Shown piece after piece: positions 8,080-64,000 of a DNA stretch of 64,000 nt. Each line of letters starts with the position of its first letter. The first letter of the stretch is position 1. A program made the position numbers and the translations under genes. The notes under the pieces were generated by a model. The model made no database searches. It was given only the letters and a program-made list of their open reading frames with translations, and was not told the origin of the DNA. Source of the DNA: Octopus vulgaris. Lineage: Eukaryota. The stretch is from positions 4,278,001-4,342,000 of the forward strand of contig OX597821.1 of NCBI GenBank assembly GCA_951406725.2. The letters are read 5' to 3'.

Positions 8080-8996
8080 CAATTCATAAATAAGGGCAAA
8101 CGAAAAAATTTCTAATGCCAAATATGCCGAAAAATTGGACATATTGTCCATTAACCATATAATTTTTTCACAATACGCACGCTACTCGAAAAAAGGTCGA
8201 CAGACACTTCTAAAAAATTCCATCATTACCATATCGGACCGATTTCAGGGTTAGCTCATAACAGCCCACACTTCGTCAGTGATACATGTAGCAAAAGAAA
8301 TAAATGAGATACTTACTCATACCCATGGAAGATGCAAACACTGAGTCATGAGCACAATTAAGTACCCCAAATACATCCAAAATAGAAATACTCCAGCCCA
8401 TTCGAGACACGTGCGATTTGAACTGAGGCCCTCACAGAGTGAGAGAGTTCGGAAGTGTACGCTTAAATTTATATCTAATGTACGATAAAATTTTTTTCAA
8501 AAAAAAATTCTTTTCGAAAAAAATTTTAGCAATGGCCAGCATATTGAAAAATACCTTTAAAGGTTAAATTTATAAACAATTCATAAATAAGGGCAAACGA
8601 AAGAATGTGGACTGCCAAATATGCCGAAAAATTGGACATATTGTCCATTAACCATATAATTTTTTCACAATACGCACGCTACTCGAAAAAAGGTCAACAG
8701 AAATTTCTAAAAAATTCCATTATTACCATATAGGACCGATTTCAGGGTTAGCTCATAACAGCCCTCCCTTCGTCAGTGATACATGTGGCAAAAGAAATAA
8801 ATGAGTTACTTACTCATACCCATCGAAGAAGCAAACACTAAGTCATGAGCTCAATTAAGTACCCCAAATATATCCACAATAGAAAAACTCCAGCGCATTC
8901 GAGACACGCGTGATTTGAACTGAGGCCCTCACAGAGTGAGAGAGTCCGGAATTGAACGCTTAAATTTATATCTAAAGTAGGATAAAATTTTTTTTT
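8080..8996 (-). mobile_element. Tandem ~497-bp direct repeat (about 1.85 units), Penelope-like pseudo-LTR type
   Basis: CAATTCATAAATAAGGGCAAACG at 8080 and 8577; each unit has a minus-strand HHR-like motif; flanked by (TA)n. Confidence 0.7.
8231..8285 (-). ncRNA. Minimal type I hammerhead ribozyme motif (second copy about 8728-8782)
   Basis: GUAUCA-CUGACGA-AG...CU-GAAA-UCGG-UC/CGAUAU; stem I GUAUC:GAUAU; copy 2 has stem II AGGG:CCCU. Confidence 0.55.
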
Positions 8997-16669: not shown

Positions 16670-16895
16670 TATAAAATAATATGTACAATTACTCAATAGT
16701 CAAGATAAAACTCTGGGTTTCAGATGCCGAAGTGGAAATCCACAACACCATATCTTCGGTTATCTGGCCATCTGAAAAAACGCGTTTTTTCAGATGGCCA
16801 GATAACCGAAGATATGGTGTTGTGGATTTCCACTTCGGCATCTGAAACCCAGAGTTTTATCTTGACTATTGAGTAATTGTACATATTATTTTATA
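16670..16895. repeat. 226-bp perfect spacerless palindrome
   Basis: Centre AAAAAACGCGTTTTTT at 16775-16790; arms are reverse complements as read by eye. Confidence 0.9.
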
Positions 16896-26010: not shown

Positions 26011-26505
<495 letters not shown>

Positions 26506-26506
<1 letters not shown>

Positions 26507-27126
26507 TAAATCTCTGAACGAGGTATAAACAGTAACTGCACGACAATGTGAGGTATACTTGCCATCTCAATATGGTTAACCACTAAAGGTAGGTGTTACT
26601 GTAGCTTGTAGCCCCAGGCGAATATCGTCTCTAGTTGGCACACTTTCTGTACCCTTATGGTATTTGCAAAGGGAGGTCATCCTTCTCTCGTAAACCTAGG
26701 TGATACGCACGGACTGCAGTTTCTAGGTTTTGACCTGTCATCAGCGTACGACAATCACCGGTTTTCAATGAAAGGGGTCCCAATGCAAATACTTATATGG
26801 TTTTTCCAGTAACTTTTCGTCACTGATCTCGACAAAACTATATGCAAGCAATAATAAATCTCTGAACGTAGTATAAACAGTAACTGCAGGACAATGTAAG
26901 GTATACTTGCCATCTCAATATGGCTAACCACTAAGGGTGGGTGTTATTGTAGCTTGTAGCGTACGACAATCACCGGTTTTCGATGAAATGGGTCCCAATG
27001 CAAATACGTAAAGGCACAGAAAATGTGCCTAATGCCAGCTGGAGACGATGCTCTCCTGGGGCTACAAGCTACAGTAACACCCATACTTAGTGGTTTGCCA
27101 TATTGCGATGGCAAGTATACCTAACA
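26506..27126 (-). mobile_element. Retrozyme-like repeat: one full 348-bp unit, one internally deleted unit and an inverted segment
   Basis: TCTCTGAACG at 26511 and 26859; homologous to 51613-52188; contains an HHR. Confidence 0.75.
26699..26759 (-). ncRNA. Type I hammerhead ribozyme with canonical core
   Basis: GGUGAU-UGU-CGUACG-CUGAUGA-CAGG(UCAAAA)CCUA-GAAA-CUGCAG-UC/CGUGCG-U-AUCACC: two-part stem I, palindromic stem III, GUC site between 26712 and 26711. Confidence 0.85.
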
Positions 27127-27140
27127 TATATCTATCTATA

Positions 27141-27990
27141 TAATTTCAACAACATTAAGGAACGGCCCCGATAGGCCATTCGACCCACTAGAAAGAACAG
27201 CCAAGAATCAAACCGCTAAATAGTAGTAATTCAGAAATTAAAGGAAAATTAAAAAAACATTTACCCTATTTATCTTTAGACAATGATATTGTTTCGACGT
27301 ACTTCATGGCAAACCAGCCTAATTAAATCAAATTTAATTTAATCAAGTCAATCTACCAAAGGTAAAGAAGCCAGGAGGAAGGGCCGTTCCTCAATGTTTT
27401 TGAAATTATATACATAGTCTGTGACTATTTTCTCTTTCTCAATAGACCGCTGGTGGCGAAAAAATTTCTATTGAATTTTTTGCTACCCTTATATTGATTA
27501 ATTAATGATTTTCTGACTAATTCTGAAATTAAATCAGCAGTTTATATTTGCTGCTGATAAGTTGGCGCGATTACGGTGGTTTTGAAAATTTAGAGTATAT
27601 ATTCCCGAGGCACAAATGCTGCTGCCTCGTGTATATTTATTCCTCCTGGCTTCTTTACCGATGAGACGGGCCTTTGGTAGATTGACTTGATTAAATTAAA
27701 TTTAATTAATTTAATTAGGCTGGTTTGCCATAAAGTACGTCGAAACAATGCATTGTCTAAAGATAAATAGGGCAAATGTTTTTTAATTTTCCTTTGATTT
27801 CTGAATTACTACTATTTAGTGGTTTGAGTCTTGGCTACTCTTTCTAGTGGGTCGAATGGCCTATTGGGGCCGTTCCTTAATGTTGTTGAAATTATATACA
27901 TAGTCTGTGACTATTTTCTCTTTCTCACTAGACCGCTGGTGGCCAAAAAATGTCTATTGAATTTTTTGCTACCCTTATATTGATTAATTA
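27141..27990 (+). mobile_element. Penelope-like pseudo-LTR array (inverted piece, partial unit, full unit)
   Basis: 27141-27380 is the reverse complement of about 27640-27895; 27382-27506 repeats at 27867-27990; homologous to 47018-47640 and 49140-49610. Confidence 0.7.
27652..27763 (+). ncRNA. Type I hammerhead motif with U4C core and expanded stem II
   Basis: UCUUUA-CCGAUGA-GACG...CGUC-GAAA-CAAUGCAUUG-UC/UAAAGA: 6-bp stem I, 4-bp stem II base, 10-nt palindromic stem III. Confidence 0.75.
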
Positions 27991-28438: not shown

Positions 28439-28551
28439 GGTCCCAATGCAAATACGTAAGAGCACAGAAAGTGTGCCTAATGCCAGCCGGAGACGATGAT
28501 CTCCTGGGGCTACAAGCTAGAGTAACACCCACCCTTAGTGGTTAGCCATAT
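28439..28551. mobile_element. Retrozyme-family fragment with inverted junction
   Basis: Matches about 26989-27103 including the GGTCCCAATGCAAATAC|GTAA junction. Confidence 0.75.
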
Positions 28552-29042
28552 TTGGCTCCACACACTCGCTCTGTCTTCATTGTGCACCATCATTGTCAAT
28601 GATTTATGTATTACTTTCTTATTCCTATGTATATATTATCGATGGTGACCAACTTTCAGTACGGTGCTGTCTAACTGAAGGAAATATGGGTGCCTTTTTT
28701 ATTAATATTTTATTATTGAATAATTATTGTATCTCCCGTTCACTCATATTAAAGTACATTCTGTCCTGAAGGGGGTTTAGAGAAGGAGAACGTTCCGCAG
28801 TCATTTCATCACTCCAATATCGATCGCCTTATATTCTGCTTTGTCTCCATGATTCATAGTGTGAAAAAAAGATACATTCTCAGAGTTTCATCTTATTAAC
28901 AGCTGGATATCTGATGATACTTAGAAGCGTACGATATGAATACCAGACGATTATGCAGCCCTCCTAATGACATACTAAACGGCTATTGAATAGGTACTTT
29001 AAGACACGAAACACCAGGCACGATAAGCATGCAACTACACAC

Positions 29043-30665: not shown

Positions 30666-31134
30666 AGGTGTTGTAGGCCGTCCGACATTCTGCCGAAAAA
30701 GTTTATGGTGAGTGAGTACTATTGTTGCCATTCTTTCAAAATGACCTGATTTTCTTAACTTTTTTTAATATTTTGTCCGCTAGAGCTTCTCAATCTCCGA
30801 GCAGATGGCTTCAGTTTTGACATCACTGCATCTACTGATTTTCATATGAGCGAAAAAAGACGTTTATACATGCGAATGGTTACCACTTCTTTTCAGGGCT
30901 ATTATGATAGTGATAACACCGCCCTTTTCAGGGCTACTTTACATTCAATTGTTGCACCTCATCAGATGCACATGTGGCTTCTCCACACCGTGTTGTTACT
31001 ACTTTATTTATGGTCTATGGGGAAAAAATCACTTCTTCTTGAATGTCAATGTTTGCAACTTAATGCAAAAAATATTCAGAGATGTACAACAAAATAAATG
31101 GTAGAATCTAATAAGGCCATTTCCGGGTATTTAA

Positions 31135-32635: not shown

Positions 32636-33940
32636 TATCTAGTTATAGTATATCTAACATCGCACGTGGAACAGTAGTATAATGGTTACATCTTTCCTTG
32701 AGGTGTTGTAGATGATGATGAGGAGGAGGAGGAGGAAGAGGGGGGGAAGAGGAGAAGGATGACTACGACGACGATGACGACGACAACGATCGTGATGATG
32801 ATGATGATGATGATGATCTGTAAACAATGATACAGGATAAACATGATGGAGTATACCAAATAATTTCTCTTTGACTAGTCATTGCTTCTCATATATGAAT
32901 AATGTCGTTTATAAACGCACTATCTATACGAAACACCAAAAGTCGATCAAATATACATAAGGTCTTCTAATGAGATGCTAATTAATGAGACGCTAATTAA
33001 CACATATTGTTTCTACATTATTGAGCGCAAATCCACTACTTCATTGGCAAATTACATCCAGCATCCCAAAGCATATAATAGTTCCTACTATCTCATCAGA
33101 ATTGAAAGGCTATACCAAGGCCTCTGTACAGCAGGCTGTGGCGATAGTACATGAGTATAAACAACATCGCTGCATACAGGGTGATTCAATAACGTTCTGC
33201 CTCTATATACTCTAATCGACCTAGCTAGCTGTAAGTTTGTATTTTGATTTGGGATTCTTGCTTATGTATTTATCTATTTCATATTTCATGCGCACATTTA
33301 TTTGCTTGACCGAGATCTTTCAAAGGGCGTTTTAAATCTTCCATTACATGTTTTCAAACAGGTAATTGATTTTTATTATTTTTGTTTCACAATCCTTAAT
33401 TATATAACTGCCTTGCTTTTTTATATCTTAACTGTTTTATATTGGTGACTTTCTTATCTACACATTTACACACTTATACTATATTACATTGCCAAAGAAT
33501 GCTATTGCCTCTTCTACGCAACAAGATGTTATTTTTCTCCGTCATTCACTCTTTATAAAGTTGTGTCCCTTTGATCCCTCTTCACTACATAAATCACGAA
33601 CAGTCATTTATAGTGTAGATACTCAAACCGACAGAACGGCCTTTCCAATTGTCTTCCATTTTTATTTATTTTCTAATCTGTTTTTCCTTTCGTCTTTTTC
33701 TTGCCATATTTCTCACCTTTGACCAACACACTTATGATCTTCACCTCACATGGCTCACCTCAACTCATCGTATTATTCTATCCATTAGTATACACTCTCA
33801 TCTTGCCTGTCTTTTTTTATTCGTGCTGCTTACACCATTTGCAAATGTCAGCTGTATTTCTGACGAAATGGTAAGCGTTTTCATTTGAAACAATCATGCA
33901 TCATACTTCTTGTGAGTTGGTAATATTTTCAGTATAATTC

Positions 33941-36737: not shown

Positions 36738-38690
36738 AACTTAGATAAACTTAGATATGTTTCGACCAAAGATTGTTCCAAGCCATGTCTAACTTCATAG
36801 CACCACCTGATAGGATTACCTAAATCCTGTTTAAGTCAAGTTTTGTTTATGGTCCATTCAAGTAGTGAGTGTTTGTTGTGTGAGTTGTATCCAATTATGG
36901 GTGGCTTATCTCGTATTCCTTGAAGGAATCTATTCAGACTCCGTTTAAAGTTGATGGGATCATTTTCCTCTTTGATCTCTTTCGGGACAATGTTAAATAG
37001 GGCAGGGCCTGTTGAGGAAAACAAATTATATTGCAGTGTACATGTATGCTGTGATCTTGAATTGGGCAGGGGACGTATGGCCCGTGATCCCAGTCTTGGA
37101 TGAACCTTGAAGCTAATGTTTAGGTCGTTTGGGCAAAGTTGGCGGTATATTCTCCACATCGTGCAAATGATGTACCACTCACGGCGGCGCTGGAGAGAGT
37201 AGAATTTCAAGGCTTTAAGGCGATCCCAATAATCGAGAGCAGCCATGCCTTCAATTCGTTTAGTGAGCGCTCTCTTGGGTGATTCAATCCTCGAGATGTT
37301 TTGTCTTGTATGGGGAGACCACAGTGGGCAGCAGTATTCGAAGTGTGACCGTACAAAGGAGGAGATAAGTGGTATGATGACACCTTGTTCTCTGGACCGG
37401 AAGGTACTTAAGATCCAGGAACTCATCCTACGGGCTATATCGACCTGATTGTTGATGTGGGCACTCCCACTGAGATTGTCATCAACAATTACACCCAGGT
37501 CTCTGATATTGTTAGAGGCTGTGAGCGGTTCCCCTGAAGGAAGAGAGTATGGCTGTTTTAGTGTGGACTTTCTTCCAAAATGCATCAGCTCAAATTTTCC
37601 CTCGGTCAGTTGCATTTTGTTTCTGTCTGCCCATTGACTCACAGCATATAGATCAGACTGGAGTTGAGTTCGGTCTGCTTCTTCATTGATGATTTGCTGG
37701 AGCTTAGTGTCATCAGCAAATATTTTCACTTTGCAGTAATGTACGACACTGGAAAGGTCGTTTATATAAATTATAAAGAGGAGAGGGCCCAAGACAGTCC
37801 CCTGCGGGACACCGCTGGTGACTTTTTCTGGGCTTGAATGGATTCCATCGACACAACATGTTGTGTCCTATTTGCCAGGAAATACTTAATCCAGTGTAGA
37901 AGTATTCCACGGATTCCAACATTTGCCAATTTTGAGAGTAGGATATAATGGTCAACCCTGTCGAATGCTTTACTGAAATCAAGATATATGACATCAGAGT
38001 TCGAACCTATTCTCAAGGCTTTAAGTATATCTTCAATGTGGTGTAAGAGCTGTGTTAGACAGTCCCTGCCACAGCGAAAGCCATGCTGATTTGCATTTAG
38101 GAGTTTGTGGGTCTCCAGGAAGTCAGCTATCCTTGATCTTAACACTCTTTCAAACACTTTAATGATGTGCGAGGTGAGTGAGATTGGGCGATAGTTGACT
38201 GCAAGGGATCTGTTTCCCTGTTTGAAAACCGGGATGACAGACTGTGATAGAAGCTGTTTCGGTATATAACCTGAGTCTAATGAATTTCTTCAGAGGTTGG
38301 TCAGAGGGACTGCAAGTTGGTGTCTACATTCCTTCAGGAGGCTAGCGGGGAATCTATCAGGGCCTACAGCAGAATAGTATTTGACCTCATATATTGCTGC
38401 AATGATGTCAGAGTCAGTGAAGTTTATGTCCGAGATTTTATGTTGGGCATCAACTTCGTTCGCTTCTCTTACGCCAATATCAGTGGGAACACGAAAGACA
38501 GAGCAGTATTGTTTCTGCAGTATTTCTGCCATTTCTTTAGAATCGTGTTGGGGAATGCCGTTATCATTAATCAATGGCCCAGTGGGTGAGACAGTGGTTC
38601 TATGCTTATTTGCATAAGAACAGAACGCTTCTGGGTTCTGTTTGATGTTTTTGATTACCCACTGTTCCTCCGCAGCTCTTTGATTTTCAT
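36737..38690 (-). mobile_element. 5'-truncated CR1/L2-group LINE with frameshifted reverse transcriptase
   Basis: Motifs GPD, NYRPISLTS, QHGFR, YLDFSKAFDRVDH, PQGTVLGPLLFIIYINDL, FADDTK, DLGV and SLQRRR over three ORF pieces; 3' tail (ATCTAAGTTT)2; both ends in (TA)n. Confidence 0.93.
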
Positions 38691-38824
38691 ATATATATAT
38701 ATACCTATATATAAATACATGTATATATATACATATATAGATATATACATATATATATATATGTAAATACATATATAGATATATACATATATATATACAC
38801 ATATATAACTATATATATATAGAC

Positions 38825-38909: not shown

Positions 38910-39483
38910 ACTAATATAGGATGAAAGTTTTGATGAAATGTGGCAGCATGTTAAAATACCTTTACGGTTAAAATTATAAACATCTTATAAGTAAGGGCTA
39001 AAGAAAATTATTTCAAAGCCAATATGCTGATAACAGACTATTAAATCGTCAATTTCCACATATAATCTACTCGCTACAACAAAAATCGAAGAACTGAAGT
39101 CGGGCAAGTTGGCCGTTTGAATTTTTAAAATTCGTTATCTCTATATTTAATCAATTTCGGAATTAATCTCATAAAAGACTTATTCCTCTTCAGTAGCGCT
39201 TACGAGAGAATATAAAAAAGATACTTACATGCGCCCATGGAAAAAGCCGAAGCAAAAAACATGAGTACATTTACGGTACATGAAGAGGAATAAGTCTTTT
39301 ATGAGATTAATTCCGAAATTGATTCAATATAGAGATAACGAATTTTAAAAATTCTAACGGCCAACTTGCCCGGCTTCAGTTCTTCGATTTTTGCTGTAGC
39401 GAGTAGATTATATGTGAAATTGACGATTTAATAGTCTGCATATTGGCTTTGAAATAATTTTCTTTAGCCCTTACTTATAAGAT
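38910..39483 (-). mobile_element. Penelope-like pseudo-LTR remnant with ~205-bp inverted arms (38982-39192 / 39281-39483)
   Basis: Arms are reverse complements; shares CAGCAT-TT-AAAATACCTTTA-GGTTAAA-TTATAAACA and GATACTTAC...CCCATGGAA with the 8080-8996 unit; HHR-like core CUGAAGA-GGAAU...AUUCC-GAAA. Confidence 0.7.
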
Positions 39484-40330: not shown

Positions 40331-40662
40331 AATTTTCCAACCACTCATTTTCAAACCTGGAAAATAACGAATGAAAAAAATCAACGTTTCTATGTTACAT
40401 ACCAAAATAAGAATAGACAATCCAGCAACGATTCGACTAAAAGTTGTGACAAATAAAATATATATCATTGATACATATGCTGCCAAACCTCATCAGCGAA
40501 AATCTGAAAACTATTTGACTCCACAGAGAACATAATGATGCCCACCATTTTCAGTAATTAATTTCCAATGTATTCCATAAGCTTCCCAGAAATTTCCATT
40601 TCCTTGGTCATTAATATAACGGTTTCATTTATTACTTTACTTCATCAGATATCCTAAATGTC

Positions 40663-40966: not shown

Positions 40967-41051
40967 TTATTGGACACTCTGGAGAGAAGGATAGAAGGAG
41001 GGTTTAACGTTTCGAGCGGAGCTCTTCGTCAGATTCATAGGAGAAGGAAAG

Positions 41052-50914: not shown

Positions 50915-51771
50915 CATTTACATATAAGAAAATGTCCTTATTGAGCAGGGGGGAGGGAAGCATAACTCAGTTTGTATATGCATGTACATATGTACCACTG
51001 CATCCTTGCATGTGTACCTTTCAAAATATATATGAAAGTATTTCTCATGTTGGCTCTAGTACATTGACCGTGTGTGATTCTCTCTATATATGTGTGTGTG
51101 CGTATTATATATGTACGTTTGTAAGCAAACAATCACATACACGCACCGACGTCTGCATATTAGTATATATGTATATATAAGATATGAATATCAATACAGA
51201 CCATTAAAATATCATCTGCATGACTCATTAGAATATCTATATTTGTCAAATATAGATAAGTGTACAGGAAAAGAGAAATTTTAATAACAAGCATAGATTT
51301 GAACAGAGGCGTACAAGAGCAGACTGATTTTTATGTGCATATACACTAACTCACGCTGCCTGACAGATGCACATCTATATGCAGACATTTCACATTAGCA
51401 TATACATGCACAATTGCATAATTATTTTGTGTATTGCTCTTCAAATGCGTTACTTCAATTTACTGCCAACGTGTTACTACTTGTTGACAACGTTATCGCA
51501 TTAGTAATTATCATCTGAAGCTTCCGTTAGTGTATGTATAGATTCGTATGTATATGAATATGTAAGTAATTTTTTTTAAAAATTTAGATGAAATACAATA
51601 ACAAAGTCAACGTAAAGTATACTAGCCATCTCAATATGGCTAAGCACTAAGGGTGGGTGTTACTGTAGCTTTTTAGCCCCAGGAGATCATCGTCTCCAGC
51701 TGGCTTTAGGCACACTTTCTGTGCCTTTATGGTATTTGGAAAGGGAGGTCATCCCTCTCTCGTAAACCTAA

Positions 51772-51830
51772 GTGACACGCACGGACTGCAGTTTCTAGGT
51801 ATTTGCCTGTCTTCGGCGTACGGCAGTCAC
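51772..51830 (-). ncRNA. Type I hammerhead ribozyme (U4C core variant)
   Basis: GUGAC-UGC-CGUACG-CCGAAGA-CAGG(CAAAUA)CCUA-GAAA-CUGCAG-UC/CGUGCG-U-GUCAC; site between 51784 and 51783. Confidence 0.75.
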
Positions 51831-52125
51831 CGGTTTACGATGAAAGGGAGACCTGTTTGCAAATACTTATAGGTTTTTCTAGTAACTTCCGTCACTGATT
51901 TCGAAAAACTTTCTGCAAGCAATAATAAATATCTGAACGAGATGTAAACAGTAACTGCTCGACAACATAAAGTATACTAGCCATCTCAATATGGGTAACC
52001 ACTAAGGGTGGGTGTTACTGTAGCTTTTAGCCCCAGGAGATCATCGTCTCCAGCTGGCTTTAGGCACACTCTCTGTGCCCTTATGGTATTTGCAAAGGGA
52101 GGTCATCCCTCTCTTTTAAACCTAA

Positions 52126-52184
52126 GTGACACGCACGGACTGCAGTTTCTAGGTATTTGCCTGTCTTCGGCGTACGGCAGTCAC
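52126..52184 (-). ncRNA. Type I hammerhead ribozyme (U4C core variant), second copy
   Basis: Identical to 51772-51830; site between 52138 and 52137. Confidence 0.75.
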
Positions 52185-52654
52185 CGGTTCGTTCAATTTC
52201 GCCAATATAAGATTTTTCTTGGCAACGGTGTTTATCATGAGGCAGAACGATATTAATGACTGTATACGAGAGAAAGATATAAAGACACGTTTCACATAAA
52301 TTTGTGCAAATTCTTTTCCCTGCATCTGAATTAGCGTTAACTATGAATAACGGAAGTCTTGATCTTGGACTTCATTACGCATGTTTTCTTTATTCGCCAC
52401 GAGATCTCAAAGGTATCTCATTATTTCTTTGACAAGCAGAATGTGCTTGGCATGGGATTTTTCATTGAGAAAGTCACCGTTGGTTTCAGTTGTCTTCTTT
52501 CGGATTTTTTTTACGAATCCCTATCTTCTCAGCTTCATACAGCGAAGCTCGCCACTTCCTAACTTAACAATCAAAATATAAACAAAAGGAAGAATGCAAT
52601 AAAGTGTTCTCTGCAACAGTTTATGATTCCACCAATTCGCAATACTCTATTGTA

Positions 52655-63070: not shown

Positions 63071-64000
63071 CAAGGGTTGGAGAAAATAATGGAAGCACCT
63101 TAAAATTTGAATTGAATTTATTTTAATGTGGGGTACGGCCGCCTTTAGCAGTAATAACAGCTTAGATTCTGCGAGGTATGGACTTGTACAAAGTTTAAAT
63201 TGCTTCCAAATGAATTTTTGTTCATTCTTCAACTAATACAGTCTCCAGTTCTTATAGTGATGATGGTAGAGGATATCAAATCCTTACTTGTTTTTTTAAA
63301 ACGCACCATAAATGTTCAATAATATTGAGATTTGAGGAGTGTAGTGGACAGATAAGATGTTCAACTTCACTAGAACGTTTCTAGTGGCATTCAGTAACAA
63401 ACGTAGCCGTGTAAATTAGTGCATTATCATCCCGAGAGATTTCGTTTCCTTCTTTAAATAGTCTTGGCCATTAATTCTGCCATCATTGGGATCATTGGGC
63501 TGGTGGATTTCCAAGGTATAGCCCTGCCAGCTCATCACGATCCTCCTCCATGTTTAACATATGGAAAAAGGCTCTCTGGGTCAAATGCTCCTTTTGGCTT
63601 TCTCCACTCTAATACTCGGCAGGTGATCGGAAATACGGTAAAGGGTGACTCGTCTGTGAAAATAACTTTCTTCCACTGCTCTAGGGACCAATTCTGCAGA
63701 ATTTTACTCCACTCTAAACGCTTTGCAACGTTTGTTTTTGAAATTAGTGGTTTGGTTTTCTGAATGCAGCCCTCCAGTGAAATCGGATTTTGTGCAGCGT
63801 ACCGGAGAACAGTTTTTCTGGAAACTGGGTTCTCGAGGTAGTCATTGAGCTCTGCAGTAATTTTAGGAGCTGTACTTTTGTGATCCTTTCTAACAATTCG
63901 CGTAAGACTTCGATGCTTCCTATCTGAAAGTGTTCGTCTTCTTTCGGAGCTTTGTTTCGAAGAGTAGGCTTTTTCCTCTTTCTCAAACGCTGTCATTACT
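63071..64000 (-). mobile_element. Decayed Tc1-family transposon (transposase pseudogene plus one TIR), runs off the window
   Basis: KPLIS, VIFTDESPF, VKHGGG, DDNA and NLNIIEHLW (DDE motifs) with stops/frameshifts; TA|CAAGGGTTGGAGAAAATAATGGAAGCACC terminal repeat at 63071. Confidence 0.9.

Follow-up and report, generated by a model that had tools for sequence, protein, structure and literature searches.

The hammerhead motif at positions 26759-26699 on the minus strand of the window (the 64,000 nucleotides of Octopus vulgaris DNA analysed here, positions 4,278,001 to 4,342,000 of contig OX597821.1, assembly GCA_951406725.2) is very probably the type I ribozyme of a non-autonomous retrozyme of about 355 nt. 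This retrozyme is present in thousands of copies; its source elements are likely driven by an snRNA-type promoter, its ribozyme is predicted to be slow alone and better as a dimer, and its RNA is likely copied into TA-rich DNA by Penelope-like elements (PLEs). Transcription would start about 10 nt before helix I and cleavage would occur after C17, so that unit-length RNA could be released from multimers, circularised and then mobilised by a PLE reverse transcriptase/endonuclease. The copy in the window is most likely a single, rearranged, neutrally decaying insertion whose ribozyme is intact, and by itself it would be unable to form a circle.

Results

A type I hammerhead on the minus strand

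The ribozyme, as read from the sequence and its fold, has the following parts.

26759-26699, minus strand: predicted type I hammerhead
26759-26754 with 26704-26699, minus strand: distal helix I
26753-26751 and 26705, minus strand: helix I internal loop UGU/U
26750-26745 with 26711-26706, minus strand: proximal helix I, 6 bp
26744-26738, minus strand: core CUGAUGA (C3 is 26744)
26737-26734 with 26727-26724, minus strand: helix II AGG:CCU with a C·A base (26737/26724)
26733-26728, minus strand: loop II UCAAAA
26723-26720, minus strand: GAAA
26720-26713, minus strand: helix III, 2 bp, with the palindromic loop UGCA
Between 26712 and 26711, minus strand: predicted cleavage site, after C17 (26712) of a GUC triplet

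The original prediction of a full CUGAUGA...GAAA...UC core holds at this place, with a GUC and on the minus strand, which had been left unstated. Its comparison with the ribozymes at 51831-51772 and 52185-52126 was also accurate: the distal helix I is GUGAU:AUCAC here and GUGAC:GUCAC there, and loop II reads UCAAAA here against CAAAUA there while AGG:CCU is kept. The C·A that it placed at the base of helix II (10.1/11.1) is found in all three ribozymes of the window; both of the others carry U4C, and among the three the canonical core occurs only at 26759-26699. The description of this ribozyme as a second copy of the family was wrong, as it is one of more than 3,000 genomic copies.

All residues of the core definition that we used (C3 U4 G5 A6 N7 G8 A9, G12 A13 A14 A15.1, U16.1 H17; PMC3088659) are present, and there are three helices with helix I open, backed by covariation, as in a type I hammerhead. 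Position 10.1-11.1, usually a G-C pair, is C·A instead; a pair at this position is a filter rule with known active exceptions such as U·U (PMC3088659, PMC7229834). The fold and the pair table give six pairs in proximal helix I, leaving the UGU/U internal loop. The minus-strand ribozyme has a fold z of -2.5, with 4 of 200 shuffles as good. The predicted minimum-energy fold of the monomer keeps helix I and mis-pairs the core, and a co-fold of two copies extends helix III with helix II intact. The core has 88 exact matches in the genome, versus 0 for the reversed pattern, and an Rfam scan of 26505-27200 returned no hammerhead family even at E 10. We regard the stretch as confirmed, at the level of a prediction from sequence, to be a real type I hammerhead of a non-LTR retrozyme unit of about 355 nt.

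Retrozyme insertions and other motifs in the window

Family sequence occurs in the window as follows, unit positions being numbered on the reference 51789-52143, minus strand.

26503..26960, minus strand: main part of the retrozyme insertion, spanning about 1.3 units (unit positions 113-355 followed by 1-222)
26959..27014, minus strand: rearranged fragment (unit 271-328); at its end is the 5' arm of another helix I, which is truncated
26993..27127, plus strand: inverted 5'-side fragment (unit 44-172), resembling Penelope-like insertions (PMC8557442)
26011..26504, no strand: (TA)n microsatellite at the insertion site
28441..28552, plus strand: ribozyme-less family fragment (unit 44-156) in the opposite orientation to the main copy
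51608..52189, minus strand: second retrozyme insertion, about 1.6 units

The main insertion has one complete ribozyme only, and its 3' end abuts (TA)n. In the second, the two ribozymes already described, alike in U4C, C·A and GUGAC:GUCAC, lie 354 nt apart. The flank of the 26759-26699 copy differs from its subfamily majority by 7.9% over 140 bases; its ribozyme is the subfamily majority, and an identical ribozyme 60-mer is common to nine sampled copies.

CUGANGA...GAAA motifs number 11 in the window versus 2.2 by chance. Those unrelated to the retrozyme family are the following.

8243-8279, minus strand: CUGANGA...GAAA motif
8740-8776, minus strand: CUGANGA...GAAA motif
30926-30965, minus strand: CUGANGA...GAAA motif
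33860-33890, plus strand: CUGANGA...GAAA motif
38257-38293, minus strand: CUGANGA...GAAA motif
39155-39193, minus strand: CUGANGA...GAAA motif
40623-40648, minus strand: CUGANGA...GAAA motif
41010-41032, minus strand: CUGANGA...GAAA motif

The motifs at 8243-8279 and 8740-8776 are copies of one repeat, and some of these unrelated motifs may be Penelope-type minimal hammerheads. A perfect 78-nt palindrome at 16744-16821 narrowly exceeds the Rfam mir-9 threshold on each strand, which is likely an artefact of the inverted repeat. At about 36840-38810 and 63540-63999, both on the minus strand, there are what we take from their motifs to be broken LINE reverse-transcriptase frames and a Tc1-like transposase fragment.

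A family of tandem and dispersed units

The genome, 2.8 Gb in size and rich in AT microsatellites, contains 642 exact-anchor ribozyme matches of the class with loop UGCA (reversed control 0) and 2,565 of the class with other loop III sequences (reversed control 4), and it is the sum of these two non-overlapping classes that exceeds 3,000. Samples drawn with the exact-core and UGCA-anchored patterns are fixed for part of the core. The family has several of the properties by which retrozymes are recognised: tandem units of 353-357 nt (about 150-450 bp would be expected), each with a single type I hammerhead, non-coding sequence, no LTR, low GC, a highly self-paired circle (the circular unit folds 5-7 SD below rough shuffles) and co-occurring autonomous PLEs. 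The 26759-26699 copy itself has only one ribozyme. Dimers and trimers are numerous, and an array at C4:13.62 Mb holds about ten units. A second full ribozyme in tandem accompanies 15 of 140 C·A and 8 of 41 G-C sampled copies; most sampled copies are without one.

Short arrays are common in the youngest subfamily, which has 439 exact matches, a median divergence of 0.7% and G-C at 10.1/11.1; the subfamily of 26759-26699 is older (median 3.6%). A subfamily that combines U3-A8 and G-C has a 2-nt loop III, which is unable to close as a monomer; this subfamily has a median divergence of 1.4% (4 copies) and makes up 8 of the first 100 matches listed in the other-loop-III class. G5A on a U4C background occurs at three separate loci, probably through repeated CpG decay rather than as an amplified dead master.

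Insertions resemble those of Penelope-like elements

The 3' ends of family insertions pile up at unit positions 168-183 (112 ends) and 219-232 (108 ends), about 50 nt apart, and (TA)4 directly follows 85 of 220 insertion ends, against a background of 6-13%. The insertions are 5'-truncated, often with an inverted 5' piece. Fixed 3' ends, 5' truncation, inverted pieces and TA bias have been described for PLEs (PMC8557442), and the retrozyme insertions look Penelope-made; the 26759-26699 copy has all of these marks plus an internal jump. The genome also has a young PLE family whose open frames reach 778 aa and whose copies end in (TA)n; a first look gave 15,355 candidates. The 3' repeat of this family has a hammerhead-like motif of its own, often with U4C. 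No accumulation of 5' ends of retrozyme insertions was seen at the cleavage site, whose bin has 1, with 7 immediately before it.

A candidate promoter and a LINE at the proposed start site

Two features lie just upstream of the ribozyme.

26821..26827, minus strand: ATCAGT-type motif, candidate snRNA-type promoter element, 58 nt before the candidate start at 26769
26756..26769, minus strand: empty L1/Tx1-like LINE target and candidate transcription start, with one changed base

A 7-nt motif stands 57-61 nt upstream in 18 of 20 U2 loci of three promoter types, the other two having a LINE end there. The same motif stands 56-61 nt upstream of the pre-helix-I ATCG in 97 of 125 retrozyme copies, and anywhere within 100 nt in 99, with a chance expectation of 0.3%. 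Non-LINE 5' ends are enriched about threefold at the candidate start (12 in a 5-nt bin versus about 4 per bin nearby). The motif and its spacing suggest an snRNA-type promoter for the retrozyme. Among runs recorded as RNA, none had family sequence. It was present in contigs from four studies whose runs were guessed to be RNA, and these contigs show no strand, ends, circles or level; the young subfamily was present in contigs of three runs guessed to be RNA and one unlabelled run, again showing no strand, ends or level.

The LINE is 5.2 kb long, has RVT_1 and zf-RVT domains with human L1 ORF2p as the closest solved structure, and probably belongs to the Tx1 group. Its 3' ends directly precede the target just 5' of helix I in all 30 cases fetched of the 38 in the genome, and are followed by retrozyme sequence in 27 and by another LINE in 3. 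Two full copies have a target duplication of about 14 bases, and a second LINE family uses the same site. At this site 5' of the ribozyme, insertions of the two L1/Tx1-like families are stacked, and no poly(A) was seen at the junctions. Two of the 20 U2 loci are directly preceded by a 3' end resembling that of the second family, which implies that the first base of U2 is another target of related LINEs. The targeting of other repeats by Tx1 elements has precedent (PMC4494074), and in the literature searched we found no description of a Tx1 element that targets a hammerhead repeat. An escape of the young subfamily from the LINE through a changed target was considered and dropped, since a greater age of the LINE would give the same picture.

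Evidence for selection on source elements

The original prediction took a U-A to C-G difference in helix I as a sign that the structure had been selected. This stands for the source elements of the family, in which subfamily changes keep pairs; it fails for the cited pair itself and for the 26759-26699 copy. Of 191 copies, 173 have U-A at this pair and 13 have C-G; the change is a single event on one branch and is derived in the 51.8/52.1-kb subfamily. The 191 copies were what remained of 220 parsed ones after the exclusion of 6 that were off-register, 12 without homologous flank, and tandem-array and exact duplicates; their tree was built including the ribozyme columns, which favours paired changes on one branch. 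Other changes on both sides of a pair were C-G to U-A in helix I (11 copies), A-U to G-C (29 copies) and G-C to A-U (11 copies) in helix II, and C3-G8 to U3-A8 in the core on a 48-copy branch (135 and 43 of the 191 copies have the two states). On branches of this tree with at least 5 copies there were 5 both-side, 3 wobble and 1 pair-breaking change, versus 2, 56 and 77 on terminal branches (Fisher p 5e-6); at a threshold of 3 copies the counts were 5, 7 and 4. In 31 haplotypes hand-picked to span the subfamilies, both-side changes occurred in 11 of 20 pairs, and the covariation score lay above all 500 of 500 shuffles and all slid controls. The covariation is strong but not clean, because the tree used the ribozyme columns and some of the changed sites are CpG, where paired changes could come from deamination.

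The best single sign of structural selection is loop III. In the first 100 listed of the 2,565 non-UGCA matches, judged by eye, it was a perfect palindrome in 75 (UCGA 57, UA 8, CCGG 6, UAUA 4), UCGG in 10 and something else in 15; such palindromes are expected if dimers matter (PMC4209133). Private changes in 16 copies sampled without fixing the core were equally frequent in the core (4/128, 3.1%) and in the flank (72/2,400 cells, 3.0%), and in a similarity-chosen sample they were 1.1% versus 2.0%. The sequence comparisons support the view that selection would have acted on source elements, with single copies such as 26759-26699 decaying neutrally. G5, A6, A9 and G12-A15.1 are unchanged on internal branches, being partly fixed by the search patterns.

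The C·A pair, loop docking and expected speed

C·A is combined with a canonical core in 675 exact genome matches and is therefore not damage. A tree of 52 of the 189 rows, built from the sequence 3' of the cleavage site, has two supported clades with G-C at 10.1/11.1; they lie apart from each other among rows with C·A, within which they are nested, and C·U and G·A rows are their neighbours. We infer that C·A is the family-wide state and that G-C arose from it at least twice, a direction given by the midpoint root only. On the C·A background, U4C is frequent. Activity is known for a U·U mismatch at 10.1/11.1 (PMC3088659, PMC7229834), and we found no description of C·A there in the literature searched; the supplements of PMC7229834, PMC4209133, PMC3088659 and the 2026 preprint (bioRxiv 10.64898/2026.07.22.740005) may show such variants.

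The loop-1 U (188/191 copies), the 3' A of loop 2 (189/191) and the pyrimidine before helix I (186/191) are the nucleotides named for docking in PMC2632901, and by this invariance the proposed docking of loop I with loop II fits the published motif. Covariation between the loops was rejected as independent evidence of docking, since the change tracks one deep split. That the ribozyme should be fast, as was also proposed, is unsupported: the mismatch at 10.1/11.1 and the 2-bp helix III with its palindromic loop match a slow-monomer ribozyme (PMC7229834), the axolotl HHR_Amex2, which cleaves to 22% as a monomer and better as a dimer. From this likeness, a fast monomer appears less likely than a slow ribozyme helped by dimer formation.

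Alternative explanations

A rival that we consider unlikely, although the strongest of those weighed, is that the C·A subfamilies, including 26759-26699, have little or no catalytic activity and spread from primary transcripts that were never cleaved, only the G-C subfamilies being able to cut. G10.1-C11.1 is the most conserved pair of helix II, and mismatches there are a rejection rule in PMC3088659; the repeated origin of G-C, its presence in the youngest subfamily, the frequency of U4C on C·A backgrounds and the excess of non-LINE 5' ends in the candidate-start bin would all suit such a history. Compensatory changes and loop III palindromes, however, also occur within C·A lineages, the catalytic residues are constant on internal branches (in part through the search patterns), and the activity of U·U at the same position argues against a mismatch being fatal.

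The Penelope-like anatomy of the insertions would also be expected if the unit were a detached terminal repeat (pLTR) of an autonomous PLE, and its copies 5'-truncated PLE insertions rather than a self-standing retrozyme; a pLTR origin of retrozymes has been argued (bioRxiv 10.64898/2026.07.22.740005). We hold this to be improbable. The only long shared extension 5' of the unit in 210 family loci is the LINE with its target duplication, not a PLE ORF, and no RT/GIY-YIG ORF was contiguous with the unit in those loci or in 60 PLE loci. Full head-to-tail arrays are present, and the 3' ends of two PLE families (30 loci each) are unrelated to the unit, with no sequence shared bar nested insertions; one PLE locus has a 72% match of 90 nt to it. 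Maintenance of the 26759-26699 copy by host selection as a fast cis-acting ribozyme is more improbable still, to the point of being hardly credible. That its ribozyme equals the subfamily majority despite the divergence of its flank might seem to favour it, but the same 60-mer is found in the nine sampled copies, private core changes in the family run at the background rate, and the copy is rearranged and adjoins a microsatellite, with no link to a host gene found. The retrozyme with Penelope-type mobilisation is the reading that we carry forward.

Discussion

As a single copy, 26759-26699 is ordinary. The family is of wider use: its amplified natural variants (C·A, C·U, U·A and G-C; C3-G8/U3-A8; U4/C4; five loop III palindromes) form a ready-made set with which to ask how much cleavage is needed by a retrozyme. 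A possible, if doubtful, extension is that the family records, in its natural mutations, a hammerhead under selection for tuned, dimer-gated activity. The C·A backbone would have been amplified to hundreds of copies even with U4C. Single steps through C·U and through G·A would have led to G-C on at least two occasions, one of them together with U3-A8 and followed by a 2-nt loop III that could function only in dimers. Slow cutting could leave full-length or multimeric RNA for Penelope-type copying, in a system of three layers: an snRNA-type promoter, a Penelope mobiliser and a LINE parasitising the start site.

The family joins the metazoan non-LTR retrozymes as a fresh member of a kind already well known, and its closest relative in form is axolotl HHR_Amex2. 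The axolotl Rtz_353/HHR_Amex2 and Mytilus retrozymes are alike in their type I hammerhead, tandem units of 350-390 bp, low GC and highly paired predicted circle (PMC7229834). In HHR_Amex2, moreover, helix III has 2 bp and a tetraloop, the basal position of helix II is mismatched, and the slow monomer and better dimer are like the predicted form of the octopus family (PMC7229834); its mismatch is U·U, whereas that of the octopus is mostly C·A (also C·U, U·A and U·U). Unlike the axolotl and Mytilus retrozymes, the octopus copies, known here from genome sequence, are mostly dispersed, truncated and inverted in PLE fashion. We found no description of an octopus or cephalopod retrozyme in the literature searched, though the supplements of PMC7229834, PMC4209133 and the 2026 preprint may show such species; the giant squid paper gives only a count of 235 Rfam hammerhead matches.

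Several individual features also have known counterparts. Schistosoma mansoni Sm-alpha (Dufour et al., PMC2632901) shares the helix I internal loop facing a hexaloop II, and one octopus clade has a CAAAUA loop; the internal loop is 4+4 nt in Sm-alpha versus 3+1 here, and loop II at 26759-26699 is UCAAAA. The core variants U3-A8 and U4C, known in nature (Perreault et al. 2011, PMC3088659), characterise whole subfamilies in octopus; U10.1·U11.1 is among the variants given there, and the parts of that paper available to us make no mention of C·A at 10.1/11.1. Newt satellite 2 (cited in PMC2220036) is a hammerhead repeat with an snRNA-type promoter, which in octopus is suggested by the 7-nt motif and its spacing, and compensatory changes across copies of a hammerhead repeat have already been taken as evidence of selection in cricket pDo500 (PMC2837043). 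Finally, the pLTR hammerheads of PLEs (PMC4209133, PMC8557442, bioRxiv 10.64898/2026.07.22.740005) share the palindromic loop III, partial tandem and inverted copies, a tail at one end and a microsatellite bias. Unlike them, the octopus unit is without an ORF, and its short helix II is canonical, with predicted loop contacts, in contrast to the minimal form of PLEs. The anatomy of its insertions backs the open proposal that Penelope-like elements mobilise animal retrozymes.
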